Positions 3,843 through 60,615 are shown, counted from the first letter of the stretch. The stretch is 64,000 nucleotides of DNA from Chiloscyllium plagiosum (GCF_004010195.1 NC_057718.1:42248584-42312583), one strand, 5' to 3'. The notes: generated from the sequence alone by a model not told the origin. A program made the numbers and translations.

Positions 3843-5515
3843 ATAGAGTCAAAAAGTCATAGTACAGAAAAAGCCCCTTCGGTCCAACCAGTTTATGCTA
3901 AACATAATCCCGTAATAAACCAATCTCACCTGCCTATTCCTGGCCAAAATCCCTCCAAACTTTTCTTATTCATGTACTTATCCAAATGTCTGTTAAACAT
4001 TGTCATTGAAATGACATCCACCACTTCCTCAGTAAGTTCATTCCATACACGAACTATCTGCAGTGTAAAAAATTTGCTCCTCATGTTTTTTTTTAATTTC
4101 TCTCCTCTCACCTTAAAAATATGCCCCCTTGTTTTGAAATCCCCCATTTTCACCCAGAAGTGAAAAGACAACTACCATTAACTCTATCCATACCTCTCAT
4201 TATTTTGTAAACTTCTATAAGATCATCTCTCAACCTCCTACCCTCTAGTGAAACAAGTCCTAGCCTATCCAGTCTTTCTTTATAACTCAAACCTTCCATA
4301 CCCAGCAATATCGTGGTAAATCTCTTCTAAACCTTCTCTAGCTTAGTAATATCCTTTCGATAACTGGCTAACTACAACTGGACACAATATTCCTGAAGAG
4401 GCCTCACCAATGTCCTGCTCAACCTGAAGATGACTTCCCAACTCCTATAGGCGCAAGTGAGTACTGCAGATGTTGGAGATTAGAGTCGGGAGTGTGGTGC
4501 TGGAGAAGCACAGCAGGTCAGGCAGCATCCGAGGAGCAGAGAAATCAACGTTTCAGGCAAAATTCCTGATGAAGGGCATTTGTCCGAATCGTCGATTTTC
4601 CTGCTCCTCGGAGGCTGCCTGACCTGCTGTGCTTTTCCAGCACAACAATTCCCAACTCCTATACTCAAAGGACTGAGCAATGAAGGCAAGCATTCTAAAT
4701 ACCTTTTTAACCACCCTGTCTACATGTGATGCAAACTTCACAGATTTATGTACCTGAACCCCTAGGTTCCTCTGTTCTGCAGCACTACCCAAGGCCCTAC
4801 CATGAATTATAAAAGCCCTACCCTTATTTATTGTACCAAAATGCAATACCTCACATTTATCCAGATTGAACTCCATCTTCCATTTTTCAGCCCATTGATC
4901 CATTTGTTGAAGATCTCTTTGTAATCTTAGGAAACCTTCTTCACTGTCTACTATGCCACCTATTTTGGTGTCAACTGCAAACTTACTAACCATGCCTTAT
5001 TTACTATCATCCAAATCATTTATATAAACAACAACAAAAGTGGACCCAGAAGTGATCCCTGGGGAACACCGCTGGTAACAAGCCTCCAGTCTGAAAAACA
5101 ACCCTCCACTACCAGTCTCATGTGACCTATCTTTACTAATGAAACTACCATGTGGAACCTTGTCGAAGGCTTTACTAACGTTCAAGCAAGTAACGTTTAC
5201 TGTTCTGCCCTTACCACCCTTTTCACAAATTCCTCAAAAAACTGAATCAAGTTTGTGAGACATGATTTTCCTCACACAAAACCATGCTGGCTATCCCTAA
5301 TCAATTTTTACCTCTCTAAATGTCCATAAGTCGTTTATTTTATAATCCCCTCCATCAATTTATCCACAAGCAAAGTCAGACTCAAGTTTATAGTTGCCTG
5401 GTTTCTCCTTACAGCCTTTCTTCAACTAAGGTACAACATTAGCCACCCTCCACTCACCAGGCACCTCATCTTTAGTTATAGATGATGCAAATATTTCTGT
5501 TAGGGGTCTCAAAAT
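3843..5515 (-). mobile_element. Diverged CR1 LINE (RT to 3' tail), interrupted at 4450-4648
   Basis: Minus ORFs [39 protein letters not shown]; tail remnant ATAGAGTCA at the left end. Confidence 0.92.
4450..4648. mobile_element. Penelope-derived fold-back insertion with hammerhead-like motif
   Basis: Inverted arms GCTGGAGAAGCACAGCAGGTCAGGCAGC / GCTGCCTGACCTGCTGTGCTTTTCCAGC; CTGATGA-AGGGC-ATTT-GTCC-GAAT-CGTC at ~4566-4593; perfect 15-bp duplication TTCCCAACTCCTATA at 4435-4449 and 4649-4663. Confidence 0.85.
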
Positions 5516-5649
5516 TCTGCCATTTTGAAACCTGTTTCCTATTTTATGGCGTGCCATTGAAGTGTTAAGCAGCCCAATTCACTTGGGTCTTTTGCGGTCC
5601 TTTTCTGGCTAATTAATGGGAGACGTTCTGCTTGCACTATGATAAGGTC

Positions 5650-5851
5650 ACCAAGGTCTTAGCAGGCCATGGAGCTACTCTCCCATTAGAGAGAGTTGAC
5701 TGGTGGTGGTTTAACCTGAGGCCACCAAGTCTCAGGTGAGGGGAGAGGTTGAGAAAGAGAATCCTTCATGGTAACTTCAGTTGCAGTGGGAATTAAATCC
5801 ATGTTCCTGCATTACAAACCAGCTGTCCAGCCAACTGAGCTAAAACAACCA
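5650..5851 (-). mobile_element. tRNA-derived SINE, decayed
   Basis: Minus strand starts GGTTGTTTTAGCTCAGTTGGCTGG (A-box-like), followed by GGATTTAATTCCC (decayed B-box). Confidence 0.65.
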
Positions 5852-6104
5852 CCCCTGCTGGTCCACCAAGCACAAAAGGACTGCAGGCAGCTAGATTTTC
5901 TCCAGACTGGCATTTCAGGGGAGGACAGGGAACATAGCTACTTTACAATCCAGCCCTCGTGGAGATTTTTTGCCTTGTAGATTTCTGGGGTTTGTCAGTA
6001 GTAGCTGAACAATGAGAAAGCAAAGCAGTTTGACAGCACACAGGGAGGGTCAAGTGCTGGGAGTGTAGACGGTTGTCAGGCCAGTAGAACTGATCTATAT
6101 GTTT

Positions 6105-6520
6105 CTCTGTAACAGGAACAGGCCTTCAGCCCAACTTGTCCAAGCAGGTTTCCTAAATTGAAGCAGTCTCATTTGCCTGCATTTGGCCCATATCCTGCTA
6201 AACCTCTCCTAGCCAGGTGCTTGTCCAAATGCCTTTTAAATGTTGCAATTGTACCCAACTGTACAAGTTCCTCCTGCAGCTCGTTCCATATACGCACCAT
6301 CCTCTGTGTGAAAGATTTGTCCCTCAGGTCCATTTTACATCTTGCCTCTCTCACCTTGAACCTATGCAACCTAATTTTAGACTTCCGTACCCTTAGGAAA
6401 AGACCTTGGCTATCCACCTTATGTGTGCCCCTCATGATTTTATAAACCTCTATAAAGGTCACCTCTCAGCCTTCTACACTCCAGGGAAATAATGTCACAG
6501 CGTCTCCTTATAACTCAAAC
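6105..6520 (-). mobile_element. CR1 LINE 3' fragment
   Basis: ORF 6169..6462 IEVYKIMRG...FTQRMVRIWNEL...FKRHLD. Confidence 0.9.
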
Positions 6521-7119
6521 TATGGAAAATCCATTCTGGAGACTATATTGCATTACTCAGCCTTCTTACTTTAGCTCTAAATCACTGAAATTGAACTTAA
6601 CAAAATTAATTTCTGAAAACCATTGATGCTAATGACAATCATGGGTAGGGGGCTGGAGTGTGAAGATTGGTGGTGGGGTAAGGGGGATTGGATGGCATTG
6701 AACGGAACCACCAACAGGTTCATCGAGCATGGACTATAATTAGTGTGGTAAGTGTGAGATGTTTTGAACTTTTAGCTGTTATTACTGCATCCCCTCCGTG
6801 TTCAGATCACCCTTTAGTGCCTTTGCCTCTATGCACAGGTAAATTAGTATATAGGCCCAAATTATCTGATCTGCATCAGAAATAGGGATTCAAAATCAGA
6901 TCAGACAAGTTACCTATTTACCTCACAGCATTTTCAAGCCTTTCTTTGATGCAGGATACATTATAATAGATGTAGCTTTACAACCATATCAGAAACATTT
7001 TAGGGAGTTATCACAAAAAAAAATCCCCTCTTTTATAGCAATAACTAGTATCTTCTAGTAACTAAACATAGCTTAAAGCTCCCAGAGTTTCTTTAACAGT
7101 CATTGGGAGAAGATAAGAG

Positions 7120-8845: not shown

Positions 8846-9579
8846 TTCAAAGTTTGTGAGAAGATTTGTAGCTCGGGTGCTCATTGTTGTGGTTCTGTTC
8901 ACCGAGCTGGGAATTTGTGTTGCAGACATTTCGCCCCCTGTCTAGGTGACATCCTGAGTGCCTGGGAGCCTCCTGTGAAGCGCTTCTGTGATGTTTCCTC
9001 CAGCATTTATCTCTGCCGCTTCCGGTTGTCAGTTCCAGCTGTGCGTTGCAGTGGTCGATATATTGGGTCCAGGTCGATGTGCTTATTGATTGCATCTGTG
9101 GATGAGTGCCATGCCTCTAGGAATTCCCTGGCTGTTCTCTGTTTGGCTTGTCCTATAATAGTAGTGTTGTCACCGTTGAACTCATGTTGCTTGTCATCTG
9201 AGTGTGTGGCTAGTTGGTGTTCATGGATGCGGATCGTTAGCTGTCTTCCTGTTTGTCCTATGTAGTGTTTTGTGCAGTCCTTGCATGGGATTTTGTACAC
9301 TACATTGGTTTTGCTCATTCTGGGTATCGGGTACTTCGTCCTGGTGAGTTGTTGTCTGAGAGTGGCTGTTGGTTTGTGTGCTGTTATGAGTCCTAGTGGT
9401 CGCAGTAGTCTGGCTGTCAGTTCGGATACCCGCGCGATTTCATCAACAGATGCCTAAGGGAAAGACAACGGAACGAAAACATGCCGCAACCTAAAGGACT
9501 AGCCACACTACCATACATCAAGAGCATTTCCGAACCATGAGCAAAATCCCATGCAAGGAGTGCACAAAACACTACATAG
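8846..9579 (-). mobile_element. Penelope-like element, 3' part with GIY-YIG endonuclease and inverted 5' segment
   Basis: ORF 9007..9318 NVVYKIPCKDCTKHYIGQTGRQL...REFLEAWHS; plus-strand 9423-9534 encodes the preceding GYPRDFINRCL...LPYIKSISE; decayed hammerhead CTCAGGA...GAAA on the minus strand at ~8920-8960. Confidence 0.93.
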
Positions 9580-11202
9580 TCCTTATTCCCCATAATAAAT
9601 TCACCCGTTTCTGTCTTCAAGGGCCCAATTTTAGTCTTAAACATTTTTTTTCTTTTCACATATCTAAAAAAGCTTTTACTATTCTCCTTTATATTTTTGG
9701 CCAGTTTGCCTTTGTACCTCATTTTTTCTCCGTGTATTGCCTTTTTAGTTATCATCGTTGCTCTTTAAAGTTTCCCAGTCCTCTGGCTTCCCACTCATCT
9801 TTGCAATGTTATACGTGTCTTGTATCTTTATACAGTCCTTAACTTCCCTCGTCAGCCACGGGCGCCCCTGCATCCCCTTAGGATCTTTCTTCCTCTTTGG
9901 AATGAACTGATCCTGCATCTTCTGCATTATATCCAGAAATACCTGCCATTGTTGTTCCACTGCCATCCCTGCTAGGGTATTGCACCATTGAACTTTGGCC
10001 AGCTTCTCCCTCACAGCTCTATAGTTCCCTTTGTTCAACTGCAATACTGACACTTCCGATTCTCCCTTCTCCCTCTCAAATTACAGATTAAAATTTATCA
10101 TATTATGGTCACTACCTCCTAATGGCTCCTTTACTTCTAGGTGCCTGATCAAATCTAGTTCATTGCACAACACCAGATCCAGAATTGCCTTCTCTATGGT
10201 AGGCTCCAGTACAAGCTATTCTAAAAATCCATCTTGGAAGCACTCCATGAACTCCCTTTCTTGGGGTCCAGTACTGATTCTCCCAATCTACCTGCATGTC
10301 GAAATCCCCCATAACAACTGTAGTAATACCTTTGTGACAGGCTAATTTCAACTCCTTATTCAATATGTGGGGACCAGGCTACTGTTTGGGAGCCTGTAGA
10401 TAACTCCCTTTAGGGTCTTTCTATCCTTAGAATTTCTCAGCTCTATCCATACTGACTCTACATCTCCTGATTCTATGTTCCCCCTCGCAAAGGACTGATA
10501 TCATCCCTCAGCAACAGGGCCACTCCACCCCCTCTGCCCATCAGTCTGTCCTTTCGATAGCACATATAGCTTTGAATATTCATTTCCAAGGCCCTGCCGA
10601 TTTGAAGCCATGTCTCAGTTATCACCACAACATCGTACCTGCCAATTTCCAACTGAGCCTCAAGCTCATCCACCTTATTTCTTATGCTTCATGCTACTCC
10701 CCTCACCATTCCTATCAATCCCTATTTCACTTGACCATACTGTATGGTCCCTTCTTGAGTTTTCTGCTCCGTTGATTCTGTTGTCTTTCTTAACGTCTCT
10801 TATTCCCACTTTCCCTTTAACTTCCTTCCTAAATTTCCAGTTTGTCCCCTCCCCTCTCCCCACTACTTAGTTTAAACACACCTGTGTTGGAGTGGCAAAC
10901 CTGCCAGCCAGAATGTTGGTTCCCCACCTATTAAGGTGCAACCCAGCCCTCTTGTCTAATTCAACCTTACGGCAAAACATATCCCAGTGATCCAAGAATT
11001 TAAATCTTTGCTTCCTGCACCAGTTCCTCAGCCACACATTCAAGTCCATTATCTCCCTATTCCTGCCCTCTCCAGTTCTAGGAGCTAGAAGCAAACTGGA
11101 GATAACCACCCTGGAAGTCCTGCTTTTCAGCCTTCTTCTGAGTTCTCTGAAGTCCCACTGTAGATTGACCTTCCTCTTCTTCCCAACGTCATTTGTGCCA
11201 AC
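9580..11202 (-). mobile_element. Older CR1 LINE: ORF1 esterase C-terminus, APE endonuclease and linker
   Basis: VGTND...SRVVISSLL...GLHLNRWG (SGNH-esterase-type ORF1); YDVVVITETWL and VVMGDF (APE endonuclease); PWLTREVKDCIK. Confidence 0.92.
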
Positions 11203-13816: not shown

Positions 13817-13908
13817 CAGAAGTTAGTTATAGACACCAGGTTATAATCCAATAGGTTTATTTGAAATCACAAGCTTTTGAAGTGTTGCCCCTTCATCAGT
13901 TGAAGTGA
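13817..13908 (-). mobile_element. Penelope-derived terminal fragment (same family as 26541)
   Basis: ACACCAGGTTATAATCCAATAGGTTTATTTG shared with 26594-26625; minus strand CTGATGAAGGGGCAACACTTCAAAAGCT. Confidence 0.7.
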
Positions 13909-15394
13909 ACGAGAGAGCCAGGTCACAGCTGAATAACGGTAAGAGGGTATCACAGAATGGGATCATGGGGGATAGATGATGGTCAGCAACAAGATCAGGT
14001 GTTGTTTCTCAGTGCCCACCTCTCCCCAATGCTGGGTGACTTACACAAGCACTAAGTGAATCACTCTCATGGAAGCCTACAAGTTTTTCTTGTCATACTC
14101 TATGCCAGTTGAGTCTGCTGCCAGCCACTGACTTCATGATTTAATTTAGTTTAATTTAGCCATTGGCCTCATATCCGATATAGTGGAATAAAGTACTTAA
14201 GTGGCTAATAATTGCCCACTTAGGTACTACAATCAACTTCTCCAATCCCACAAGCCATCACAAATATGTAATACAATGAAACCAACAAGATAATCAATTT
14301 GCCTAACTGACTGCTATTCAGGATTAAAGTAATTCACAGTCAATTATAATTGATAGGAAACTAACTATTTACTACAAACAAACCTATCCTTTAAAAAATG
14401 CCAAAAACCATTTGCAATTTACCACTATGTGACTTAAGCAAAACTCTTTTAAAAACATCACTCTTTCTCTCTCTCACACACAAACACTCACACACACAAA
14501 TTCATCCATTCACACATAAAATAGATAAAAAAATTGATACAAATATTATGGATGGAAGAAGTGTAGACAGGGAAAACAAATTCTATAGATGTAAAGTATA
14601 GACCATAAGAATTGAGTTATTTTTAACAGTTTTTAAAACTTCTTGCAGCGATGGTGACACGTGACCAGGACAATGGTCAATCTTCAATTTAGTAGCTGAT
14701 TGGGTGGATCTAGGTATTTTCTTGAATTAGAATTTTCCCTTTCGAGTCTGTAGATTTTTAGGGTTTTTTTTGCCACTCACAGAGAATGGTCAGCGCTCGT
14801 TCTTGTTTGATGACTTCTGGATGTTTCTGTTACTTCTGTTTGGACAGTCTAGAACTTGTGTTCATAGGGGTGAATTTTGCTGAAATTACCAGCACTACAT
14901 TGGATCACTTTCAGTTTCTGAGCCAATTAGAGATTGGAGTGAGGCACATGTCTGCCTTTTGCTGGAGGCGACAAAATAGTAAGGTGCCTCCGTGATATCT
15001 GGCCAAGTGTGATCTTTTGGAGTAATCATGAGGCAGGAGTTTGAAATGCCATTCATACTCCAACACGTGTCAATCCAGAAGGAACACAATTTCATTAACA
15101 TAGCAACTTGTTATGTTAGGGTTCAGTGCCATTTCCCTGAAGGTCTTGCAGAAGTAGTAAAAGCCGGTTGGAACATTTACTTCTAGAGAGTGGCAGGATG
15201 AAGACTATCCAGCAAAGGAAGAAGTTATGACTGTAGATCACCCAAAGATACTTACAGCAACTGGAGTGTGGTCAGCAGCTCCAATATAGGGGAACCTTAG
15301 TTACCTTCTGAGTTCGTGCAAGAAAAGTACCATCAAAATCCAAGCTGTCAGCCATGAAGATCTTAAAGGGACAGCACACCTCTGAATGGGAGTG

Positions 15395-15562
15395 CTGAAA
15401 ACAAAAATGTTGGACATCACAGCGGGTGAGGCAGCATCCGTGGAGAGAGAACAAGATAATGGTTCGAATCTAGTTGACTCTTTATCAGCTGCCTGGCCCT
15501 TTGTGATGTCCAACATTTGTTTTCAGCACTTATTCCAGCATCTGCAGCCATTTGCTCCTACG
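15395..15562. mobile_element. Penelope-derived fold-back insertion
   Basis: Arms AAATGTTGGACATCACA / TGTGATGTCCAACATTT; tail CCAGCATCTGCAG; 15-bp duplication CTCTGAA(TG/CA)GGAGTG at 15380-15394 and 15563-15577. Confidence 0.8.
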
Positions 15563-16539
15563 CTCTGAACAGGAGTGACTCAAAACAGCCAAGTGGATGT
15601 GTGTCTAATGTCAACCTTCAACCATTACAAAGACAGCAGCGTGAAATTTGGGAGGATGTTAGAGTTAGTCAACCAATGTGTGAATTGTGATGGTCAATGA
15701 TGGTTAACTGTTGCTGAATAATTCATTGCAGGAGAAAACAAAAAAAAAAGCATACACTTGTTGCAGGAGTGGTCCAGCAAGTGGAAAGACCAACCTGGAA
15801 ATATTAGCATCAGGGAGGGGAATATCCTTTCTCTTGAAAAGATGACCATAGTCCAATCAATCAGCAACTTTGAGATTAATGTCTATCAGAGAGTGTGAAG
15901 GTCTAATGAATATTTCCCAAATACACCTTGGAACTGTTTGTGTTGAATTATGTCTGATGAATTAGCTGCTGAAATAAAGGAGGGGAGTAATTGATACCTT
16001 TAATCTTATATGCAGCCAATATGCAGCTGATATGAAGGGAGTAAGTATCTCAAAGGATAATTTTACTCAAAAGAACTACTGTCACAGGAATCAAAGTCAT
16101 CCTTGACCCACATCTCTACATCCATCAGCACAATGTGACTGCTAGGCTTCTGGATTCACTGCTCTTCTCCACTGCTTAGGTTTAAGTAGGTGTCCCAACA
16201 TTCAAATATAGCGTCAGTCAGTAGGGCCTCAAATACTAAAATTTCCTTGCACCTTGATGAATGTGCAGTTTTGTAAGTCTTACAATCTAAGTCATGGTTC
16301 TGACTCTAGAGATTACCCATGGCAAGGTAATGGATATACATGAGGTCCTGATTGTTGACTTCCCTTTTCATAACAAGATAATGCCTTCACAATGCAGCAT
16401 CTCATCTGCTTAGACAGACAAAGGATTCTGTATGTCTGAAAATGTAGAAATGCTATCTCAAGCTACTTCTCAACTATCTACTTAATCAACTGAATAGCCT
16501 GTCGATCACTACTGCATAGACATTCATCTTCTCTAAGGA

Positions 16540-22374: not shown

Positions 22375-23735
22375 AAGGGAAAAAAGACTGCAAGAATTTC
22401 TGTAGATATGTAAAAAGGAAATGTTTGGCGAAAATGAATGTAGATTCATAATTGGCAGAGTCAGAAGAGTTTATAATGGGAAACAAAAATGGCAGGGAGG
22501 CTTTACTGAAGAAGATACTAAAACATTCCCAGAAGTATGGATCCAAGTGGCTAGAGAGAATGAAGAATTGAAGGAAATTAGCATCAGTAAGAAGATTGAC
22601 ATTCGGAAATTGATGGGGCTGAAATTTGATAAATCTCAAGGACCTGATAATCTATGTCTTAGAAGTGGAAAGAGATTGTTCTACAACAATTGATGCATTG
22701 GTGGTTATCTTCCAGAATTCGATAGATTCTTGAAAATGTAAGAGTATATAGGGACCTGGGCGTCCTTGTCGATAAGTCCCTGAAGGCTAACATGCAGGTG
22801 CAGCAAGCTATTCAGAAGGCTAATGCAATTTTAATATTTATTGCAAGAGGATTTGCTTTCAAAAGTAGAAAGTTTTGCTTTAATTGTATAGGAGCTTGGT
22901 TAGATTGTACCTGGAGTACTCTGTGCAGCTTTGATCTCTTTATCTGAGCAAAAATATCATTGCCATAAGGAGAGTGCATTATAGGTTTGTCAAACCTGTA
23001 CCTGGGATGATGGATCTGTCCTATAAATACAGGTAAAACAGGCCTGTATTTTGGCGCTTTGAAGAATGAGAGGTGACCTCATTGAAACCTCCAAAACACT
23101 AAAAGGAATAGTGTAGATGCAAGTAAGGTGTTTCTGTTGATTGGTGGTCCACAACCAGAGATCATAATTTAAGAATAAAGGGAACGCTATTTAGCTACTA
23201 AATGAGAAGAACTGTTTTACTCAGAAGGTTGTGATTTTTAAAAAACTCTCTACCACAGACAGCTGCAAAAGTTCAGACTTTGAGTATGTGCATTGTAGAG
23301 ATTGATAGATTTCTAATTATGAGTCAAAAAGTGTAGTGCTGGAAAAGCACAGCCGGTCAGGCAGCATCCAAGAAGAATGAGACTTGATGTTTTGAGCATA
23401 ACCTTTTTATCAGGAATGTCTCGGATGCTGCCTAATCGGCTGTGCTTTTCCAGCATCCAAGAAGCATGAGTCAATGTTTCAAGCATAAGCTCTTCATCAG
23501 GAATGTCTCGGATGCTGCCTGACCATGCTGTGCTTTTTTAGCATCACATTTCTTGACTCTGTTCTCTAGCATCTGCAGTCCTCATTTTTTTCTAATTACG
23601 AGTGCAACACTTGTAATTAGAAGAATTATGAAGATGGGGTAGGTAAAAGACATTGAAGTATTCAATAAGTCACACTTGTGGTTAATGGCGAGGAAATTTT
23701 GATGAACTGAATGGTTTACTTCTGTGCCTATTTTC
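22375..23735 (+). mobile_element. Old internally deleted CR1, interrupted at 23325-23588
   Basis: KLMGLKFDKSQGPD; GACCTGGGCGTCCTTGT; CTGGAGTACT; GAGAGGTGACCTCATTGAA. Confidence 0.8.
23325..23588. mobile_element. Penelope-derived fold-back with internal tandem duplication
   Basis: Arms GCTGGAAAAGCACAGC / GCTGTGCTTTTCCAGC; ~90-nt unit duplicated; minus strand CTGATGA-AGAGC-TTAT-GCTT-GAAA at 23471-23503; flanks TTTCTAATTA(T/C)GAGT. Confidence 0.85.
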
Positions 23736-25550: not shown

Positions 25551-27175
25551 ATAGAGTCACAGAGTCATTCTGGATGGAAACAGGTCCAACCAGTCTATGC
25601 TGACCATAATCCCAAACTAAACCTGCCCCACTTGCTTGCGCTTGGCCTATTATCCCTCCAATCATTTCTTATTCATGTACTTATCTGAATGTCTGGAAGT
25701 TTATTCCACACACAAACCACTCTCTGTGTAAAAAAAATTGTCCCTAAAGTCTTTTTAAAATCTTTCTCCTCTCACCATAAAAATATGCCCCCTCGTCTTG
25801 AAATTTCCCACCTTATGGAAAAGATACCTGCCATTCACCTTATACATACTCTCATGATTTTATAAGGTCATCCCTCAATCTTTTACGCTCCAATAAAAAA
25901 AAGACCCAGCTTATCTAGCCTGTCCCCATAACTCAAACCCTCCTTTCCATGCAACATCCTAGTTAATCTGTTCTGAACCTTCTCCAGCCTAATAATATCC
26001 TTCCTATAACAGGGCATCAAGACCTGGACACAGTACACCGGAAGCAGCCTCACCAACATTCTGTACAACCTCAACATAATGTCCCAACTCCTATACTCAA
26101 AGGACTGAGCAATGAAGGAAAGTGTGCTAAATGCCTTCTTAACCACCCTATCTATATGTGATGAAAACTCCAAGGTCTTTCTGTTCTACAATGTTAACCA
26201 AGGACCTACTTTTAATTATATGTCCTGTGTTTGTTTGTCTTACCAAAATATAATACCTCACCTTTATCCAAATTAAACTCCATCTGCCACTCTGCAGCCC
26301 ATTGACCCAATTGATCAAGATCTCTTTATAATCTTAGATAACCTCTTCACTGTCTGCAAAACCATTAATTTCGGTGTCATCCACAAACTTACTAACCAAG
26401 CCTTCTATATTCTCATTTAAATCATTTATATAAATGACAAACAAAAGTGTACCCAACACCAACCCTGCAGAACATTATTGGTCACAGGCGTCCAGTCCGA
26501 AAAGCAACTCTCCACCATCGTTCTCTTTCTTCTGCTGTTACAATTTGGAGGTGCCGGTGTTGGATGCGGGTGGACAAAGTTAAAAATCACACAACACCAG
26601 GTTATATTCCAACAGGTTTATTTGGAGGCACCAGCTTTCTAAGTGCTGCTCCTTCATCAGGTGGTTAGAAGCAGCGCTTCGAAAGCTGGTGCCTCCAAAT
26701 AAACTTGTTGGACTATAACGTAGTGTTGTGTGATTTTTAACTTCTTCTGTTAAGCCAGTTTTGTACACAATTGGCAAGCTCACCCTGAGTTCCATGTGAT
26801 CTAACTTTATTAATTAGTCTACCATGCAGAACCTTGACAAAGACTTCACTAAAGTCCAAGTAAACAATGTCTACTGCTCTGCCCTCGTTCTCAAAAAACT
26901 CATATCAAGTTTGTCAGACACAATTTCCCCACACAAAACCATGCTGACTATCCCTAATCATTCATTATCTCTCCAAATGCATATAAATCCTATCTTTCAG
27001 AATTATTTCCAACAACTTACCCACCATTGAAGTCAGATTCACAGGGCTATAGTTCCCAAGCTTCTCCTTACACCCCTTCTTAAACAAAGACATAACATTA
27101 GACACTCACCTGTCATCCAGCACCTCACCCATAGTTTTAGATGACACAAACATTTCTGAAAGGGGCCCCACAAAT
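25551..27175 (-). mobile_element. Diverged CR1 LINE, interrupted at 26541-26743
   Basis: ORF 25883..26173 KKAFSTLSFIAQSFEYRSWD; RT remnants to ~27170; ATAGAGTCACAGAGTCA tail. Confidence 0.92.
26541..26743. mobile_element. Penelope-derived fold-back (second family) with hammerhead motif
   Basis: ~70-bp arms AAGTTAAAAATCACACAACAC.. / ..GTGTTGTGTGATTTTTAACTT; minus strand CAC-CTGATGA-AGGAGC-AGC-ACTTA-GAAA-GCTG-GTG at 26629-26663; flanks CT(G/T)CTGTTA. Confidence 0.88.
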
Positions 27176-27204
27176 AGGTTTTCCCTGTCAACTCTATACA
27201 AGCC

Positions 27205-27732
27205 CCTTTTTTTTCTTTTTTTTCATTTGTTGCCCATCACTAATATGCCCTTGAGCTGACCAATTCAGAGGGCAATTAAGAGTCAATCACATTGCTGTGG
27301 GTCTGGAGTTACATGTAGGCCAGATCAGGTAATGATGATGGACTTCCTTCTGTAAAGGACATTTATGAATCAAATGAATTTTTATGACAACTCATGATAG
27401 TTAGCATGGTCACCATCAATGAAACAAACTTTGTGTTCCAGATTTATTAATTGAAATTCCACCAGATGCCGTGGTAGGATCCCAGAGTCTGAGACTGTGT
27501 GTCAGAATTACCAGGTAAAAACAATGACTGCAGATGCTGGAAACCAGAGTCTAGATTAGAGGGTGCTGGAAAAGCACAGCAGCTCAGGCAGCATCCGAGG
27601 AGCAGGAAAATCGACGTTTTGGGCAAATGTCCTTCATCGGATGCTGCCTGACTTGCTGTGCTTTTCCAGCACCACTCTAATCTAGTCTCTGAATTACCAA
27701 TCTAGTCACATTGCCAATAGGCTACCATCTTC
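27205..27732 (-). mobile_element. tRNA-headed SINE with LINE-type tail, interrupted at 27514-27690
   Basis: CACATTGCTGTGGGTCTGGAG...TTCCTTCTGTAAAGGACATT shared with 60140-60460 and (inverted) 49950-50030; tail TTTGTTGCCCATC shared with the 3' end of 58925-60615. Confidence 0.75.
27514..27690. mobile_element. Penelope-derived fold-back insertion
   Basis: Arms CTAGATTAGAG.GTGCTGGAAAAGCACAGCA / TGCTGTGCTTTTCCAGCACCACTCTAATCTAG; decayed hammerhead in the loop; GAATTACCA duplicated at 27505-27513 and 27691-27699. Confidence 0.88.
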
Positions 27733-27939
27733 CTAATCTGGGCTTGCTTGGCAATGTAGCTGACTCTAGATAACCTTGGACTAATTGTACATCCTTGCCC
27801 AACACATCTGGGCTCATTTGATAATTTTATTGACTGACAATAACAAGGCTGATTGCACATCTTCACCATTATTTTGTGTACCTCAATTAGGTTGCCTGCT
27901 AGCCTCTTCTATTCGAAGGAAAACAACATTAGCTTATCC

Positions 27940-34669: not shown

Positions 34670-35286
34670 ATTACTGAAAACAGAGCCACCGTGTTAAAGC
34701 TTTCCATCTTGCACTCATCAGGACAAATGCAAAAATATTGAATGTCAAATGATCACAACAACTTAAACTACAGGAGGAAAGGGCAATGATTGGTTGCTGC
34801 ATTAACTAATTGGCTCAGGCATTTCCATGGAGAAAGTGACAAGCAACTATAGGCTCCCCAAGTTCCTGCATAATTTAAAGGAAAGCAATCGGCTTTCCCT
34901 ATATTCCTTTCATTTGTAGAACAGCAAATTCCTTTCAATGCATGTATGCATTTCCAGGAAAGTATAAATGAGCCATATTACAAACTCAAACAATTATTTT
35001 ATATTGGCTGTTAGTGTTGGTATTAGCACAAGCTAGATTATTTAGCCTAATCGCAGAACCATGTGTAACAAAAGATGTTTTACTTTGGATTTTGCAAATG
35101 CTGAACTTGTGGAGCCAATAGTTTCCTGTGATTTCACTATGGCAAAACTTTAGCTAATTAGAGTTTACTTGCCTCTCTTTTCGTCCAGTATAACTTGTTG
35201 TGATCATTTCAAAATTTGCATTCTTACATATATTCTGGTAAGTGCAAAAAGAATAAGATTCAACAATACATTTTTCTCTTCAGCAA
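34670..35286. mobile_element. Old Penelope-derived element with inverted ends
   Basis: Minus strand GTC-CTGATGA-GTGCAAGATG-GAAA-GCTT at ~34697-34723; decayed inverted counterpart TTCTGGTAAGTGCAAAAAG at ~35233. Confidence 0.5.
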
Positions 35287-40290: not shown

Positions 40291-41450
40291 TGATAGAATA
40301 TTCTTCACTTAGCTGGGGAATGAAGTACCAACATGACTCAAAAAGCTCAACACTATCAAGGCAAAGCAGTCCTTTTAGAATTACTCCTCTCTCTATTCTC
40401 TGTTCATAATCACATGTGACTGTAGTGTTCCCTGCAATAGTAAAATTTGTGCAGAGATTATGTAAAAATTATTTGGTAGCTGACTGTAAATTCGTGAAGT
40501 CACATACTCACTTTACCAGCAATCATTGTACTCCCTTTGCCTTTTTCTCTAAGATTCTGAAAATTCATTGTAATACATTTGCAAGTTTAACAATGTAATT
40601 CCTCACTTCAGTTCAGGATAATACAAAACTATTTCACGTTTCTGAAAGCTGTATTATTTAAATCAAGCATCAAGGATTAATGAGTTGATTGCAAAGGTGT
40701 TATCCTGCTGCAAGAAAAAAGCTAAAAGCATTAAATACTCAAGGTCACTTCAATAACCAAAGGGATAATATTTATACAATTTTATGGCCATAAGTCCTAT
40801 CAATATTTATTTCATCATACCCTTTGCCTTGAGTCATTTACCAGTACTTCAGCTACACTGTCAGTTAGTTCAGAAAGCAACAGTATTTATTTTGACATCA
40901 GAAGCCAAAGTTCATTCAACTGGGACATAACTCAGAGGGAAATAATGTTCTTTGTGACATCCAAAATCAAAGGTCATCAATAAAGGATAGTGTTAGCTAG
41001 GTGAACCGTTGTTTTTCACACTCTCCCTCACCTATTTGAAAGTCAGGGTGAACAGAAGTTCACCTGAATTTGGAAACTAAATTTCATTTATAGCAAAAAA
41101 TATGATCTTGGAAGAACTGTTTTGGTTTTCCTGATTTTTTTTTCAATATCGATATTACACTTGGGAAACAGGTTGTATGTAATGAAAACTAAGTATAACC
41201 TATTTAGTCAAAGAGAGTGCAACGATTTTCACATATTTATTACAATGATTTAATACATAGGATCCACAACAATAGAATATGTTATTTCATAAAAAGAAAT
41301 CATGGGAATCATGCTTGCTCTTTATCTTAAAGAAGTAGTTATCTAAGCAGCAATTCTGTCATTTATAGCTCTGCTAATCTTTCTAAAGATTATATTTAGT
41401 GATGGCTAGTAGATATCATGATGGCAACATGAATTACAATAAGCCTTCTA

Positions 41451-41566
41451 GGAGAAAGTGAGGACTGCAGATGCTGGAGATCAGAGCTGAAAATGTGTTG
41501 CTGGAAAAGCGCAGCAGGTCAGGCAGAAGGTTACCTGCTGCGCTTTTCCAGCAACACATTTTCAGC
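41451..41566. mobile_element. Minimal Penelope-derived fold-back insertion
   Basis: Perfect ~35-bp arms AGCTGAAAATGTGTTGCTGGAAAAGCGCAGCAGGT and its reverse complement; 34-nt unpaired tail; TTACAATAA(G/A)CCTT duplicated at 41434-41447 and 41567-41580. Confidence 0.88.
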
Positions 41567-42253
41567 TTACAATAAACCTTGCAATCTAAGTTTTCAGTCT
41601 GTCAGAAAACACATTAAAAAGCACCATTTGATTATGAAGATAAAGCCATTAAATTGGACTACAAAATTCAGAGATATCATAGAGTAAATTTTAAGGTGAC
41701 TCATTTGTGCAGGTGAAAGGCAGGGTGATACATGCAAATGAAAATGGTTGGAAAGCAGATTCAATTAGGTGGTTGAGCCTCATAAATATTTTCGCAAGGC
41801 CCTGCTTAAACATCTGGTGCAGTGTACCAATCAGGGGTCAAGGAGACTACAGTATAGAAAATCTGCTCACTCCTCAGCAAAGCCAAATTTTTTGTGTCAT
41901 GTTTAAGTGGATAGATGATTTTGGAGAAGTGCTGTGAAAGGTCAGATGACATGACACAGATATCTTTGTGGGGTTAGGAAGCTTCTAAACACATAAAAAT
42001 TACAAAAAGTAAATGAATCCAATCTGCTTTTTGAAACTTGGGATGAGTGTTGTGGTATTTTCTCAAATATCCACTTATGGTACCTTGCCGCATTTGCCAC
42101 TTCTATTATTATGCGGTTCTGGGTAAGGGCTATTTGAGGTAGGTTGCTGCCACTATTTGTCCTTAGTCTATGCTTTGTCTTGGACCTATCTATTATCGAT
42201 AGAATATATACCGCCATACAGCATCTACAGAAGAAGCAGTATTCTTAAATAAC

Positions 42254-42935
42254 AAGAAGATTTATTGCATCATAGCAAAAAGTACAACTACATTTGGTCA
42301 GGCATAATTATATGGTTCAGGGGAAGCTGGATTAGAGATACATGTACTCCCCCTGAAAGCTAGAATAGAACTCCTTGTCCCAACAGTGTATACACACAGA
42401 ACATGAAGTCCTTGATGATGAACTCTCTTAAAGGCAAGACAAAGTGGACTCACACCAATGCCTGGTACACTTTAATCATTTTACACTCCAGCCCTCCTGC
42501 AATAAATGCCAGCATGCAATTTGCCTTCATTCTCAGTTGCACTCACATACTGATGTTTTGTGATTCATGTACGTGGACATTCTGATCCCTCGACTATAGC
42601 ACTTTGCAGATTCTATCCATTTAAATAATTTTCTTCTTTCTATTGTTTCTTGAAGGCAAATTGCATGCCGGCATTTATTGCAGGAGGGCTGGAGTGTAAA
42701 ATGATTAAAGTGCTATAATTGTACTGGGCATTGGTGTGACTGCACTTTGTCTTGCCTTTAAGAAAGTTCACCATTAAGGACTTCATGTTCTGTGCGTATA
42801 CACTGTTGGGACAAGGAGTTCTATTCTAGCTTTCAGAGGGAGTACATGTATCTCTAAACCAGCTCTCCCAGACCCATATAATTATGCCTGACCAAATGTA
42901 GTTGTACTTTTTGCTATGATGCAATAAATCTTCTT
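42254..42935. repeat. Long inverted repeat: arms 42254-42529 and 42651-42935, 121-nt spacer
   Basis: Continuous reverse-complement match from AAGAAGATTTATTGCATCATAGC to GCATGCAATTTGCCTTCA with scattered mismatches. Confidence 0.95.
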
Positions 42936-44719
42936 ATTTGAATTGTATTGAATTGAATTGAATTTAATTTGTTGTCATGTGTACTGAGGCACAGTGAAAA
43001 TCCCAGTCTTGCGAGCAATACGAGCAGATCATAGTTAAGTAGCATAGATAGTATATAATAAGTAAACAGCGGCAAAAACAGAAACACAGGTACAGGCAAA
43101 TGTTAAGAGTTTGTGACTCCATCCAGTACTCTAACAACCGTAGGGTAGAAACTATTGTGAAACCGGCTGGTGCATATGTTCAGGCTTCTGTAACTTCTCC
43201 CTGATGGTAGAGGTTGTGGAAAAACATTGTCAGGGTAGAACGGATCTTTAAGAATGCTGGCAGCCTTTCCTTGACAGCGGGCCTGGTGGTTGGATTCTAT
43301 AGATGGGAGGTTGGCCTTTGTGATTGTCCGGGCCGAGTTCACCACTCTGTAACCGTCTCTGATCTTGAATAGTACAATTGCCATACCAAGTAGTGATACA
43401 TCCAGATAGAATGCTTGCGATGGCGCACATATAAAAGTTGGCAAGGGTATTCACCGTCATGCTATATTTCCTCAGCTGCCTGAGGAAGAAGAGACATTGT
43501 TGGGCCTTTATAACCAATGCGTTCTCATGAAGAGTCCAAGAAAGCTCGTTGTGGATGACTACTCCTAGGAGTGTAACACTCTCCACTTGTTCCACCCCCT
43601 TGCTGTTAATGTGTAGCGTGCATAAGTAACATCCCGCCGAAAGTCAATAACGAGTTCCTTGGTTTTGCTGGCATTGAGAGCTAGGTTGTTCCCAGTGCAC
43701 CATTTTCCAGGTCTTCCACCTCCCATTGGTAGTCTGTTTCGTCGCCATCTGAGATTCAACCAACTATGGTGGTGTCATCAGCAAACTTGTAAATGGCATT
43801 AGTCTGGTATTTGGTAACTCAGTCATGGGTATACAGTGAGTACAGTAGGGGGCTGAGTATGCACCATTTGGGGCTCCAGTGTTGAGAGCTAGTGATGATG
43901 AAACATTGTCCCACACTGATTGTGGCCTGTGGGTCAGGAAACTGAGGATCCAGTTGCAGAGAGTTGGGCTTAGTCCAAGATCACTAAGTTTAGTAATCAG
44001 TTTCAAGGGGATATAAGTGTTGAAGGCTGAACCTTGATCAATGAGTAGGATTCTTACAAAGCTGTTCTTGGTGTCAAGATGTTCTAGGGAGGAGTGAAGG
44101 GCAAGTGATATGGCATCTGATGTGGATCTATTGGTCCGATAGGTAAATTGGAGTGGGTCAAGAGAAGTGGGGAGGCTGGGTTGATAAATGCCATGACCAG
44201 CCTTTCAAAGCACTTCATGACTACCACTGAAGTTAGGCCCACTGGGTGGTAGTCATTGAGACATGTTGCATGAGCCTTCTTAGGCACAGGGATGATGATG
44301 ACCCTCTTGAAACAGGCAGGGACAGTAGCCTGCTGCAGGGAGAGGTTGAAGATGTCCGAGTAGACCTCTGCCAGTTGATCTGTGCATGCTCTGAATGCAC
44401 GGCCTGGTACTCTGTCTGGTCCAATCGCTTTCCTTGGATTCACATGAAGGAAAACTGATCTGACCTTTGATGCAGTGACTGTTAGGAGAGGTTCGTTTGG
44501 ACTGGTCAGAATAGGTGTTACCTCTCTGCCAAAATTCTGCTCAAAGCGAACATAGAAGGCATTGAGACGATCTGGGAGAGATATGTCATTGTCTGCTCTC
44601 TTGCACTGTCTCTTTTTAGAATCTGTAATGTAATTCAGTCCTTGCCATAGTCGCCGGGTGTCTGTCTCGGTCTCTAGTTTGGATTGGTATTGGTCCTTGG
44701 CTGTCCTAATGGCTCTTTA
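42936..44719 (-). mobile_element. Rex1/Babar-clade LINE, 5'-truncated
   Basis: [85 protein letters not shown]; (TTCAA)n tail at 42936-42965. Confidence 0.93.
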
Positions 44720-51296: not shown

Positions 51297-51784
51297 CAAC
51301 TGACTTGCAAGTACAGATCTATGAACAAATATAAAACATTAGTTTTTTTGGGGATCTCGATAATCAATCTATCCTTTGGGTCCTTGTGAAGCTACTCACG
51401 TTTCTGGTGAATGCCTGCTGTTCAGTTGTCCCAATGTGATGAGGTGCAATCTCCATGATCCATTACTGCTTTGCACCTTCCTGATGCTGCCATGTGCTAG
51501 ACCTTTGTAACTTTGACCTTTGCATTGTTTTAAAAGATCATGGCAATCAGCATACTCTGATTCTTGGTGGCCTTGTTTAAACATTGCAATGTAACTCTGT
51601 CGACTTGGTATGTGAAGCCTGCTTAATGATTTCTTCTCCACACCTTTAATTTTCATGTATGCAGGCCTAAGAATACTTTTCCATGGTGAAATTATAGGTC
51701 AATCTCCCCCGGAACCATCAGTGTTGCTGGTCACTCTTTGGTGCCTTTTTTGTCAAATGTGTATCGATCCACTTGGGAAAATGA

Positions 51785-51883
51785 AACAAAAATAGAAATT
51801 GCTGGCAAAGCTCAGCAGCCTGGAAGAATCTGTGGAGAGAAATCGGAGTTAATGTTTTGGGTCGAGTGACCCTTCCTCAGAAA
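51785..51883 (-). mobile_element. Penelope-derived terminal fragment (third family) with hammerhead motif
   Basis: Minus strand CTGAGGA-A-GGGTC-ACTC-GACCC-AAAA-CATTAAC with a perfect 5-bp stem II; related to 57770-57870 and 58110-58207. Confidence 0.75.
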
Positions 51884-52326
51884 GCGGACTGAGTCTCATG
51901 TCCCATGACTCCCGGGGTCACCACAAAAGTTAAAGATTCAATCAAAATATGCAAAGTCCACAACTTGACTGTCCGATGCAATCATGTTAACACAAACCAC
52001 TGACTAGATTCCCATACTTAAAAATAACTACTGTTTATTACCAATAAATAAATTATAATTACAAGCAAACAGATATGAATTATCAAGGTCTCGATCTACT
52101 AGTTAAAACTCTTAACCCCCTTTTAAACCTGTGCACACAAAAACAGACAGATGCAGGCAATCAAAACAAAAATAATAGTGCTATGGGTGGAGGGAAAAAG
52201 AACTGGCAAACACAGTTCAATAGCATCAGTCCACAGGGATTGATGAGATTTTCCTTTTGCTTATCAATATCTTATGTTCTTCAATTTCTTTTCTCGAAGT
52301 TCTTTCTCTTCTTTGCAGGAGGCATA

Positions 52327-55520: not shown

Positions 55521-55673
55521 TAGACTAACATTTAATATGGGTTCTACATTTACTCATATTATTGTTACATTATGTACATAACTAACCAATTGACTAACTA
55601 ACCAACTGTCTGACTGTTTAACTGATTGATAGTAAGAATAAGAACATGTATACTAAAGCAATGTATGTCATAA

Positions 55674-57110: not shown

Positions 57111-57479
57111 AAGTAATCTTTCTGTTTACAAGTGCTCAATCTTTCAAGCTTTTTCTTAGTTTTTCCAGATTTTTAGCAATTATATCGGTTGTCAATCTCA
57201 ACTGTAGTGAAGAAATGGCTTGACTTTGTTAATCTGCAGGTAATAGGATAACCTTATTTCTCTGTCTAGTGTGAACCTTTAGGGAGGGTTCTTCCTTAGT
57301 TTTGAGGAATCTCTTCACTTTGAGACACTTTATCTCCCAGGCTAACTGATACATTGCTCAATAAAGTGTTTCTTATTACAAGTTGGTCTCTTTCAGATGA
57401 TCATGGTATTGGTGTTCCCATTGTCTGTACAGATGGTCCCTGATGAAGTTATCATTGACATACAATGACGTTTGAACTT

Positions 57480-57870
57480 TGGTGACACAAGCAGATTTTG
57501 CTGTAAAAACATGCCAGGTATGGCAGCATCTGTGAAGAAAAGGCAGAACAAACAGTGTCCAGTGACCCTTCATCAGAACTGCGTTTCAGATTGAAATTCC
57601 AATGTGGGAAAAATAACATTCCCTCACAAGTAAATGCAAATAGCCAAAATTCAGAAAAACAACACTGAACTTGAGTTCTGAAGAAGAGTTGTGGACTGAA
57701 GCATTGAACCTGGGTCTTTGGTGCTGTGAGGCAGCAGTACTAACCACTGAGTCACTGTGCCGCCCCAAACATTAATTCTGTTTTCTCTCCACAGATGTTC
57801 TCAGACCTGTTGATTTTATGCAGCAATTTCTGTTTTTGTTTTTGATTTCCAGCATCTGCAGTTCTTTGAT
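57480..57870. mobile_element. Composite Penelope-derived fold-back containing an HE1 head fragment and an inverted copy of the flank
   Basis: Arm GGCAGCATCTGTG..GACCCTTCATCAGAAC (57480-57580); opposite arm GTTCTGAAGAAG..TCTCTCCACAGATG..CCAGCATCTGCAG; HE1 head (minus) at ~57700-57766. Confidence 0.7.
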
Positions 57871-58109
57871 AGTTTTGAATTTTAGCTATTTGCATTTGCT
57901 TGTGAGAGAATGGTATCTTTTCACACCCATTTGTGGAATTTCAATCTGCAGCCACTAAGTCCGTGTGACCACTGTACATCAGTTTCTGCTGATATTTAGA
58001 CAAAACCAGCTATTAATTCCAGAGATAGGATCACTTGCGTTTTTACTGTCACTTCACTGGAATGATCCGAAAACATTGTTAACTGTCCAATCATGCAGGC
58101 ATCTTCCTA

Positions 58110-58207
58110 AAAACAAAGAACTGTGGTTGCTAGAAATCTAAAACAAAAACATTAATTATTGGAGAAAATCAGCAGATCTAGCAGCATCTGTGGAGAGAAA
58201 GCAGAGT
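58110..58207 (-). mobile_element. Penelope-derived terminal fragment
   Basis: AAAGAACTG..GCAGCATCTGTGGAGAGAAAGCAGAGT is the reverse-complement counterpart of 57775-57868. Confidence 0.65.
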
Positions 58208-58924
58208 ACCTAACTCAGGGTTGTTTCAGTCTGGGCAGTTTCATGTATGCTAACAGAGAATGGAGATATCACCTGTTCCATTTTGTTTCAAGGTAAATTA
58301 CCCATTTTCTTTGCCTTTTAAAAATGAACAGTTAAATTTTTTCATAAGTTCTCAAGTAGAACACTGTCAAGACAGATGCATGATTACTTGCCCTGTTTAC
58401 ACAGATATTAGACGCCCTGCAGAAGGTGCTTCACTATTTCTATCTCCAAATCCAAAATTTTCTGCAAGTTAAGCACTTAAGAGCAAATCTAACAATCAGC
58501 TGAGGGCATGTATATTTATTGGCCACAATCAATTTTGGACCACCATATTGAGCATCAAAATATATTACATTCATGCATTCCAATGCTCCAGATTTGGTGA
58601 ATACTCTTGGAGGCAAAAGTGTTGGCGCATTCTATCAAATTGACAATTGAATACATTCAATTCATCATTCAGTTGTACTATAAACACAAAGAACAAGTAT
58701 TGCCATATTTAAAAAAAATCAGAATAGTACTCAACATTCTATTGTGAAAGTGAAAGCTTAAAGCAGGGGAAACATTCCATGCCACTAATTTCTTAAAATT
58801 TTGCATTGTGAACATAAATTCACCCTTCACACTTTCAACTCAAATACTGAAAAGTATAGTGAAAAAGCAATCTACGCAGAAAGCAACATGAGAAAAAATG
58901 TACTTGGATTACTACAATGGGACT

Positions 58925-60615
58925 TGGATATTGTTGGATGGGCCAGCATTTACTGCCATTTTTTAGTTGCTTTTGGGAAGGTGGCAGTGAGCTGCCTTCT
59001 TGAACACCTGCACTTCATTTGCTATTAGTAGATCCATAATGTATTCAGGAGGGATTCCAGTGTTTTGAACCTGCGTCACTGACGGAACTGTGATATATTT
59101 CCAGGATGGTGAGTGGCTAGGAGGGGAATTTGCAGGTTGCAGTGTTCCCATGTAACTGCTGCCTTTGTCCTTCAACATGGAAGTAGTTGTGGGTTTGGAA
59201 GTTTCTGTATAAGGATCTTTGGTGAATTTCTGCAATGCATCTTGTAGATAATACACACTGCTGCTACTGAGCATTGGTGATAGGTGAAGTGGATGTTTAT
59301 GGATGTGGCAATTAACCAAGTGTGCTGCTTTGGCCTGGATGGTATCATGCTTCTTGAGTATTGTTGGAACTGACTAATTCAAGCAAGTAGTGAGTATTCC
59401 ATCTCATAACTGACTTGTGCCTTGTAGAAGGTGGATAGGCTTTGGGGAGTCAAGAGGTGAGTTATTATTCCCTGCAGGACTCCTAGCCTTTGACTTGATC
59501 TTGTAGCCATTGTATTCATATGGCTAGTGCAGTTCAGTTTATGGTCAATGGTAATACAAGGATATTGAAGTGGTGGATTAAATTATAATAGTCCCAATTA
59601 ATGTGAAGCGACAATGGTTAGATTGTCTCTTATTGAAGATGGTCATTGTTTGTAATCGATATGGCATGAATGTTACTTGCCACTTTTCAGCCCAAGCCTA
59701 GATATTGTCCAGGTCTTGTTGCATGAATTTCTTCAGTATCTGAGGTTTTCTTGCCCATGTTTGATCAGGAGCCATGAGACTTCATGTTGTTTGGTGTCTA
59801 TGTTGAGGTCTCCAAGGGCAACTCCCTCCCAATTGCATCCAATGGTGCCACCATCTCTGATGGGCCTGTCCTGCCAGTGGGACAGGACATATCCAAGGAT
59901 GGTGATGGTGTTTCTGGGATATTGTCTGTGAGGTATGATTCTGTGAGTATGACTGTTGCTTCAGTAGTCTATAAGACAGTTCTCCCATTTTTGGCATTAA
60001 TGCCCATACAGGAGGACCATGCAGGGGTGGCAGGATAATTTTTGCCATTGCCATTTACAGTGCATAGGTCAATGGTAGGTGGACATTCCAGTTTTATGTC
60101 TCTTTTGAGTCTTTCTAGTAATCAGAGGGCTGTGAGGAGTCCAACACATTGCTGTGAATCTGGATGTAGGTTTGCTCGCTGAACCGAAAGGTTTGTTTTC
60201 AGATGTTTCATCACCATACTAGGTAATATCTTCAATGAGCCTCGGAATGAAGGCTTCATTCGGAGGCTCACTGAAGATGTTAACTAGTATGGTGACAAAA
60301 TATCTGAAAACGAATCTTCCAGCTCAGCGAGCAAAACTACATCCAGATCCTCAACCTGAGCTACAAATCTTCTCAAAACTCACTAACATTGCTGTGGATT
60401 TAGAGTAAAATGTAGATCAGACCAGGCAATGATGGCAGTTTCCTTCCCTAAAGGACATTTGCGAACCAGATGAATTTTTCTATCAATGAAATGAATTCTC
60501 TTTATTCCAGGTGTTTATTCACTTCAAATTTCACCATCTACCATGGTGAGATTCAAACCCATGTCCTCAGAACATTACCTTGTTTGTGGATTAACAGCCT
60601 AATGATAATACCAAG
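58925..60615 (-). mobile_element. Internally deleted LINE (CR1/L2 group) with a tRNA-like 5' head
   Basis: Minus strand VILTESYLTDNIP (endonuclease start), FKKAAHCHL (ORF2 end); head GGGTTTGAATCTCACCATGG at ~60540-60560; head and tail shared with the SINE at 27205. Confidence 0.75.
60160..60385. mobile_element. Penelope-derived fold-back (family of the 8846 element)
   Basis: ~90-bp arms meeting at GAATGAAGGCTTCATTC; CTGAAGA-TGTTAAC-TAGTAT-GGTGAC-AAAA; tail GAGCTACAAATCTTCTCA shared with the 3' end of the 8846 element; ACATTGCTGTG duplicated at 60146 and 60386. Confidence 0.9.

Follow-up and report, generated by a model that had tools for sequence, protein, structure and literature searches.

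Head-to-head hammerhead-plus-tail insertions in a Chiloscyllium plagiosum genomic window as probable products of Penelope-like elements

Introduction

A stretch of 64,000 nucleotides (nt) from Chiloscyllium plagiosum (GCF_004010195.1 NC_057718.1:42248584-42312583), called here the window, contains seven short insertions, each made of two inverted arms of which only one carries an unpaired terminal tail. How can an insertion be palindromic and one-sided at the same time? In the available text of PMC8557442, PMC3846280, and PMC11167929, the formation of the inverted repeats and the one-sided tail of Penelope-like elements (PLEs) is treated as an open question. The seven insertions are likely dead-on-arrival, heavily 5'-truncated, head-to-head PLE ends that comprise a hammerhead and a tail and belong to at least four shark families. 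We consider their PLE origin very probable, and we favour, with less assurance, a model in which both ends of the cut target prime separate complementary DNAs (cDNAs) that become joined in the centre.

Results and Discussion

The seven insertions and their target duplications

The window is vertebrate non-coding DNA (38% GC, 905 N) with many pieces of CR1-type long interspersed elements (LINEs). The seven loci were picked by eye within it and are named here by their starting coordinates. The initial annotation had described an inverted-arm insertion at each of them, and the inverted repeats are present in all seven, with arms 82-100% identical across the paired portion and units of 116-264 bp without an open reading frame (ORF). 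The true start of 41451 is 41448, with a duplication of 14 bp. Insertion 23325 is not a simple two-arm structure, since it contains a tandem duplication of ~97 bp that spans the inversion junction; the divergence between its two copies (83.5% identity) equals that between the arms, and thus it arose at or shortly after insertion. A census of PLE-like sequences gave 15 clusters, reduced to 12 PLE-like loci by omitting two bits shorter than 40 nt and merging 57481 with 57763, and 9 of these 12 are head to head. An inverted truncated copy lies adjacent, head to head, in all seven insertions and also in the 8846 element.

The best flanking direct repeats match at 15/15 positions in 4450, 13/15 in 15395, 14/15 in 23325, 11/12 in 26541, 13/15 (or 9/9 exact) in 27514, and 13/14 in 41451, and at 60160 an exact 11/11 repeat extends to 14 with three mismatches. 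All seven exceed chance: among 1500 random intervals, no more than 5 scored as high as the lowest of them. The duplications range from 9 to 15 bp and measure 14-15 bp in five loci; the range of 9-19 bp proposed earlier thus needs its upper limit lowered, 19 bp being reached at 60160 only if the microhomology is included. The 15 bp of 4450 are present once in four paralogs of the host repeat, the corresponding sequence of 26541 (9 bp projected, 12 counting a common CTT) in three paralogs, and the 14 bp of 60160 in one. These paralogous empty sites hold the duplicated sequence once, and therefore the duplications arose at insertion. Empty paralogs were not found within the window for 15395, 23325, 27514, and 41451, so that three of the seven are confirmed in this way, and no orthologous empty site was seen in the two other organisms (B and C). 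Neither did a search for duplications find one at 8846 or at the solo pieces 13833, 51776, and 58101.

The tail, measured from the edge of the duplication, has 43, 36, 33, 39, 32, 38, and 39 nt (4450, 15395, 23325, 26541, 27514, 41451, and 60160), and beyond the exact microhomology it has 43, 32, 29, 36, 31, 37, and 35 nt in the same order. It is therefore 29-37 nt long in six of the seven, across families, and 43 nt in 4450, or ~34 if an imperfect match of 7 of 8 is counted, where ~30-42 nt had first been reported. The opposite, tail-less end shares 0, 4, 4, 3, 1, 1, and 4 exact bases with its target, a total of 17 nt against 4.7 expected (P=0.0006; P=0.003 with a relaxed measure). The junction microhomologies pointed out before, AGTG (15391), GAGT (23321), and ATCTGGA (60158), are present.

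Hammerheads, families, and links to proteins

In the RNA sense, each arm runs from a hammerhead core through ~45 nt to the tail. Cores are visible in six of the seven insertions, 41451 being too short, and each appears to consist of CUGANGA, one unpaired base, stem II, GAAA, and a short palindrome, matching the minimal PLE hammerhead layout with its palindromic short stem III as given in the text covered of PMC4209133. The read consensus keeps stem II-GAAAC-GUC intact with an agreement of 0.9 in 30,334 paralogous reads. Our hammerhead scan was loose, hitting four of the seven insertions and giving 5-16 hits in shuffled sequence. The Rfam search returned no hammerhead family, only microRNA (miRNA) hairpins under the gathering score. 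Single-strand folding of eight hammerhead regions gave stem II in some and the full ribozyme fold in none, and it is not counted as evidence.

Four insertions (4450, 23325, 27514, and 41451) form family A, whereas 15395 represents family B and 26541 family C. For 8846 and 60160 we use the label Poseidon-type, presumably correct from the inspection of proteins P0001 and P0006. The fragment encoded at 8846 is 84% identical to P0001, a reverse transcriptase (RT) plus GIY-YIG protein carrying RVT_1, and the proteins closest to its GIY-YIG part are labelled bamboo, epaulette, whale, and zebra shark; the GIY-YIG Pfam hit (E=0.012) lies under the curated cut-off. This coding fragment continues straight into the hammerhead and tail, and both arms of 8846 hold overlapping ORF sequence. 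An arm of 60160 is 73% identical to the end of 8846 over 115 nt (E=1e-9), which bears out the shared tail noted initially, and the tail-less arm of 60160 matches the C-terminal read-through of P0006, another RT plus GIY-YIG protein (61% over 31 amino acids, E=6e-5, tblastn).

The proposed Penelope connection is supported: a link to RT and GIY-YIG is shown for 8846 and 60160 only, and the other six insertions, of families A, B, and C, are probably tied to PLEs by their anatomy. A family A arm, translated and compared with proteins in what is a weak test, gave no match, and a scan of metagenome contigs with a 23-letter family A motif returned five loci, all unrelated. The window holds no partial tandem with direct pseudo-long terminal repeats (pLTRs) around an ORF; this arrangement is expected of long copies only, and hence its absence is not counted against truncated members.

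Arm asymmetry and the priming of the insertions

The tail-less arm extends further toward the RNA 5' end than its partner by 17 nt in 4450, 52 nt in 15395, and 43 nt in 23325, and so calling it the short arm, as had been done, is misleading. The tail-bearing arm is the longer one in 26541, 27514, and 41451, and 60160 is symmetric. Since each arm of the first three holds private sequence, neither was copied from the other, and the fold-back or hairpin DNA of the initial annotation is contradicted by three of the seven copies; the product is better described as two joined cDNAs. A centre that is uneven in either direction is expected of two independent cDNAs. In 41451, whose arms are identical, the centre is already asymmetric and includes a 6-nt filler, whereas the older 60160 (86%) retains a palindromic one.

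The longer arms tend to end at one place. Relative to the first base of CUGANGA, they stop at -4, 0, -4, -4 to -6, and +2 in five of the seven, at about -17 in 60160, and well downstream in 41451. Two solo tail-less pieces (13833-13902 and 51776-51885) also end at the 5' edge of the hammerhead, and there is a solo tail-bearing piece (58101-58207); none of them has a significant duplication. Among the filler rows listed for contigs of other organisms (720 more exist), 2 of 12 end at this edge. We take the hammerhead edge to be a favoured stopping point that does not delimit a family, and it may be the 5' end of the RNA. The arms run past the ribozyme cut site, indicating that the template was uncleaved.

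In the two-cDNA model a GIY-YIG/RT protein, probably a dimer, would nick both strands ~14-15 nt apart, as the duplications suggest, leaving two 3' overhangs. One overhang would prime a cDNA that begins at the distal RT start site and so includes the tail, and the other would prime at the proximal site 30-37 nt upstream, if the two sites are indeed divided in this manner between the cut ends, with the register set by the pairing of 1-4 or more nt with the RNA. The microhomology at the tail-less end fits such pairing of a 3' overhang with the template at the proximal site. As the cDNAs overlap in sequence, two template copies would be used. Each cDNA would stop independently, and in very many cases the stop would be the 5' edge of the hammerhead, still uncleaved, where the clustering of ends is observed and its cause presumed. 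The two cDNA 3' ends would be joined by microhomology or filler and the gaps filled. Two-ended priming from a stagger of ~14-15 nt had been suggested beforehand; we infer it too, and the mutually exclusive arm sequences in three of the seven favour it. The suggestion that one synthesis begins at the RNA 3' end is probably wrong, both start sites of the anole PLE PAc being internal in vitro according to the text covered of PMC11167929.

Several points weigh against the two-cDNA model and the PLE assignment that underlies it. A perfect palindrome that undergoes an asymmetric deletion after insertion can look as if its arms held private sequence. In many copies the consensus of the reads extends beyond the hammerhead on its upstream side (agreement 0.40-0.56), and this edge is therefore not absolute. 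The microhomology figure covers the tail-less end alone, without a tail-end control, and such microhomology is equally predicted by snap-back. The window contains no ORF for families A, B, and C, leaving six of the seven insertions unlinked, and the duplication and tail lengths are those of these seven loci and not of the genome.

The alternative that survives best is snap-back self-priming, in which the cDNA primed at the tail end folds, copies itself, stops ~35 nt short, and joins the second strand by microhomology, the uneven centres coming from later deletion in the palindrome. It would account for the three insertions in which the tail-bearing arm contains the whole other arm, for the palindromic centre of 60160, and for microhomology at the tail-less end, and self-priming at palindromes has been proposed for rotifer PLEs in the text covered of PMC3846280. 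We nevertheless regard it as unlikely, given the 17-52 nt private to the tail-less arm in three of the seven, the position of the tail-less end, which coincides with a demonstrated start site of RT on RNA, the existence of solo tail-less pieces, and the asymmetry already present in the least diverged copy.

The private arm sequence and the microhomology would be explained equally well by a single RNA primed sequentially, the first cDNA being displaced or released and the second overhang then priming at the proximal site of that RNA or, in a tandem transcript, of its second pLTR copy. PLE transcripts do come from partial tandems with two pLTR copies, but the overlapping ORF sequence in the arms of 8846 requires either that hundreds of bases be displaced from the strand or that the RNA be multimeric, and we consider this route rather improbable.

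Returning to the two-cDNA model, a tentative extension, which we hold as a possibility somewhat short of even, is that two-ended insertion is the default mode of PLE integration: an RT-endonuclease dimer with two RNA copies, a stagger of ~14-15 nt, and fixed start sites 30-37 nt apart near the 5' end of the RNA (in the 5' pLTR copy) would mostly yield 'strong-stop-like' cDNAs that reach the 5' edge of the hammerhead. If true, this single rule would account for the tail and the inverted pLTR as well as for the target duplication and the ~10^5 mini-palindromes of sharks, and it would replace the self-priming proposal. Shark mini-insertions, on the order of 10^5 and with both junctions and the centre within one read, would allow dual priming and snap-back to be separated by counting.

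Copy number and diversity of the inversion junctions

Raw reads of the same organism, amounting to about 4% of one run, were aligned with positions 26401-27900 at 80% likeness. Depth reached ~59,500 over family A and ~36,000 over family C, against 0-3 in the unique flank. If the genome measures 3-4 Gb, the number of arms in it would be on the order of 10^5.

The four family A copies have four different centres, and the three opposite-strand family C joints listed are carried by 14, 30, and 38 reads where the depth is about 36,000 (the list leaves out another 2,397 joints). No identical joint dominates among them, and the expectation that inversion points differ from copy to copy is sustained. 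The consensus of loose read ends keeps its sharpness as far as a tail end and breaks up beyond it, and the contig consensus fades 10-15 nt outside the core, as a mixture of tail-less and tail-bearing ends would give; the table of begin and end peaks from the reads listed no peaks. Inverted-arm loci at other sites appear in the runs of three organisms. The palindrome is thus rebuilt at each insertion; it is not itself mobile, and it is not a miniature inverted-repeat transposable element (MITE).

That the palindromes are MITE-like or retrozyme-like units moving whole with a fixed centre is accordingly very improbable. They do resemble MITEs in their small size, high copy number, and duplications, and a few joints recur in 10-30 read starts. 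Against this, only one end of each unit is paired, the other being unpaired for 29-43 nt, the duplication varies in length, the arms extend across the position at which the ribozyme cuts and end upstream of its core, and the head-to-tail arrays of a retrozyme are absent from the window, which has only the local duplication in 23325. Assembly chimeras or chance hairpins can practically be dismissed: the 905 N and the lack, among the contigs listed, of any that bridges an insertion junction by at least 31 letters (one from organism B reaches 23 letters into 27514) would allow them, but the arms differ by up to 18%, the duplications are significant, empty paralogs exist, and inverted-arm loci are seen in three organisms. 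In annotation, the palindromes can be mistaken for miRNA hairpins as well as for MITEs, and they should be entered as PLE stubs.

Two further joints were inspected. The strongest one, from 27549 to 27675 (2,723 reads), was rejected as an inversion junction, because colinear copies of another subfamily produce it in the mapping when their tail falls on the left arm and their core on the right arm. The joint from 26589 to 27513, present in a few reads and contigs of all three organisms, connects a family C core with a family A tail end and possibly reflects an insertion of one of these families into the other elsewhere in the genome.

Comparison with known systems

These insertions are not a new class; as far as the text covered of each source goes, the geometry was already published (PMC3846280; PMC8557442), and hammerhead pairs as well (PMC4209133). 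An inverted truncated copy and a one-sided tail of 30-40 bp have been described for PLEs (PMC8557442; PMC8969392), inverted pLTRs with a 31-bp tail in Adineta, duplications of 8-10 bp, and a self-priming proposal are found in PMC3846280, and a repeat of 34-37 bp is known from Drosophila virilis (PMC2377424). With the insertion unit of endonuclease-containing (EN+) PLEs, as these partially covered sources present it, our loci share the head-to-head order, the tail on one arm, the duplication, and the hammerhead in the terminal repeat. They differ in their size of 116-264 bp, in having no ORF, and in duplications of 14-15 bp in five of the seven against 8-10 bp in Adineta. The seven insertions follow the published PLE insertion pattern and are a known kind of product, to which mechanistic detail is added here.

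The closest biochemical parallel is PAc, a Poseidon element from Anolis carolinensis, which, in the text covered of PMC11167929, cleaves and extends both strands in vitro, starts reverse transcription at two internal sites that bound the tail on an uncleaved RNA template, and is predicted to dimerise. Its hammerhead, the ~45 nt that follow, and a tail of ~35 nt between two RT start sites resemble the arms in the window. By contrast, the start sites are not assigned there to opposite cut ends, inverted products and duplications are not treated, and initiation without target homology is reported, where the window shows microhomology (PMC11167929). In Schistosoma, hammerhead pairs on opposite strands 100-700 bp apart were noted and related to truncated PLEs, with no tail, duplication, or junction analysis in the text covered (PMC4209133). 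In D. virilis, helix I is where the intron ends (PMC4209133). The non-LTR retrozymes of vertebrates are likewise short, non-coding, hammerhead-bearing, and related to PLEs, but in the portion covered they form head-to-tail tandem arrays, whereas the units in the window are single head-to-head pairs (10.64898/2026.07.22.740005).

A further comparison concerns a LINE family. In L1 twin priming, microhomology lets the other end of the cut prime on the RNA as well, and the product contains an inverted segment together with a duplication. L1 has a variable second site, and its two parts do not overlap; here the second site is fixed at 30-37 nt from the first, and therefore the arms overlap and a palindrome forms.

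No published dual-priming model for PLEs was found in the open literature text, subscription papers and figure images lying outside that coverage, and the terms tried in three text supplements of PMC11167929 gave no match. The PLE architecture and the in vitro mapping of the tail were known; the mutually exclusive arm sequence in three of the seven insertions and the stop at the hammerhead edge in five are added here.

Coordinates and other loci

Table 1. Features of the seven insertions and of the 8846 element (window coordinates).
Feature	Position	Strand	Remarks
4450 left target duplication, 15 bp, in CR1-type LINE copy	4435..4449	+	15/15 vs 4649-4663; single in 4 paralogs
4450 family A tail-bearing arm	4450..4561	-	tail ~4450-4483; ends in hammerhead stem II loop
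4450 family A tail-less arm	4562..4648	+	starts 4 nt 5' of CUGAUGA core (4566); ~17 nt private
4450 right target duplication	4649..4663	+	
8846 Poseidon-type PLE 3' end	8846..9425	-	GIY-YIG-coding fragment 9007-9450 (11-amino-acid deletion), hammerhead core 8958, tail 8846
8846 inverted second arm (upstream ORF sequence)	9424..9579	+	outer end lost, duplication not found
15395 left target duplication, 15 bp	15380..15394	+	final 4 nt common to element
15395 family B tail-less arm	15395..15488	-	reaches first hammerhead-core base; ~52 nt private
15395 family B tail-bearing arm	15488..15562	+	tail 15531-15562
15395 right target duplication	15563..15577	+	
23325 left target duplication, 15 bp	23310..23324	+	final 4 nt common to element
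23325 family A tail-less arm	23325..23416	-	ends 4 nt 5' of hammerhead core; ~43 nt private
23325 tandem duplication, ~97 bp	23362..23545	.	copies inversion junction; 7-nt microhomology at switch; 83.5% identity
23325 family A tail-bearing arm	23506..23588	+	tail 23560-23588
23325 right target duplication	23589..23603	+	
26541 left target duplication, 9-12 bp, in CR1-type LINE copy	26529..26540	+	single in 3 paralogs
26541 family C tail-bearing arm	26541..26666	-	tail 26541-26576; ends 4-6 nt 5' of hammerhead core (26660)
26541 family C tail-less arm	26667..26743	+	final 3 nt common to target
26541 right target duplication	26741..26752	+	
27514 left target duplication, exact over 9 bp, 13/15 when extended	27505..27513	+	
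27514 family A tail-bearing arm	27514..27638	-	tail 27514-27544; ends within CUGAUGA
27514 family A tail-less arm	27639..27690	+	
27514 right target duplication	27691..27699	+	
41451 left target duplication, 14 bp	41434..41447	+	
41451 family A tail-bearing arm	41448..41526	-	tail 41448-41484, end agrees with read consensus; short of hammerhead
41451 6-nt filler and tail-less arm	41527..41566	+	34/34 identical to partner arm
41451 right target duplication	41567..41580	+	
60160 left target duplication, 14 bp (11 exact)	60146..60159	+	microhomology of at least 4 nt with element
60160 Poseidon-type tail-less arm	60160..60252	-	hammerhead core 60235; matches P0006 C-terminal read-through
60160 Poseidon-type tail-bearing arm	60253..60385	+	core 60271; tail ~60349-60385; near-perfect palindromic centre
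60160 right target duplication	60386..60399	+	

An eighth, older, head-to-head locus (57481-57948) represents family D. Its tail-less arm occupies 57481-57590, and its tail-bearing arm, 57672-57872, is split by a piece resembling a short interspersed element (57703-57764), with a weak duplication of 9/10. The spacer between the arms is the right flank, 57873-57948, copied in inverted orientation (84%, ~76 nt) and extending ~12 nt into the antisense tail, and it likely records a template switch onto target DNA during insertion.

Two other inverted structures lie in the window. The inverted duplication at 42251-42938, with arms of ~290 nt (91%), a 121-nt centre, and no flanking duplication, was excluded as a PLE, having nothing in common with the PLE arms; part of it resembles CR1 by eye. 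A weak inverted repeat at 34692-35265 shows 67% identity over ~175 nt.

The second arm of 8846 carries an internal deletion, and an unrelated repeat truncates it (9534-9580), with the loss of the outer end and of any duplication. The GIY-YIG sequence of this PLE is also carried by several predicted shark host proteins (P0003, P0010, P0013, and P0014), among them MAP3K7, 5'-nucleotidase domain protein 1, CUE domain protein 2, and WW-domain-binding protein 2-like isoforms, suggesting exonisation or an artefact of the gene models.

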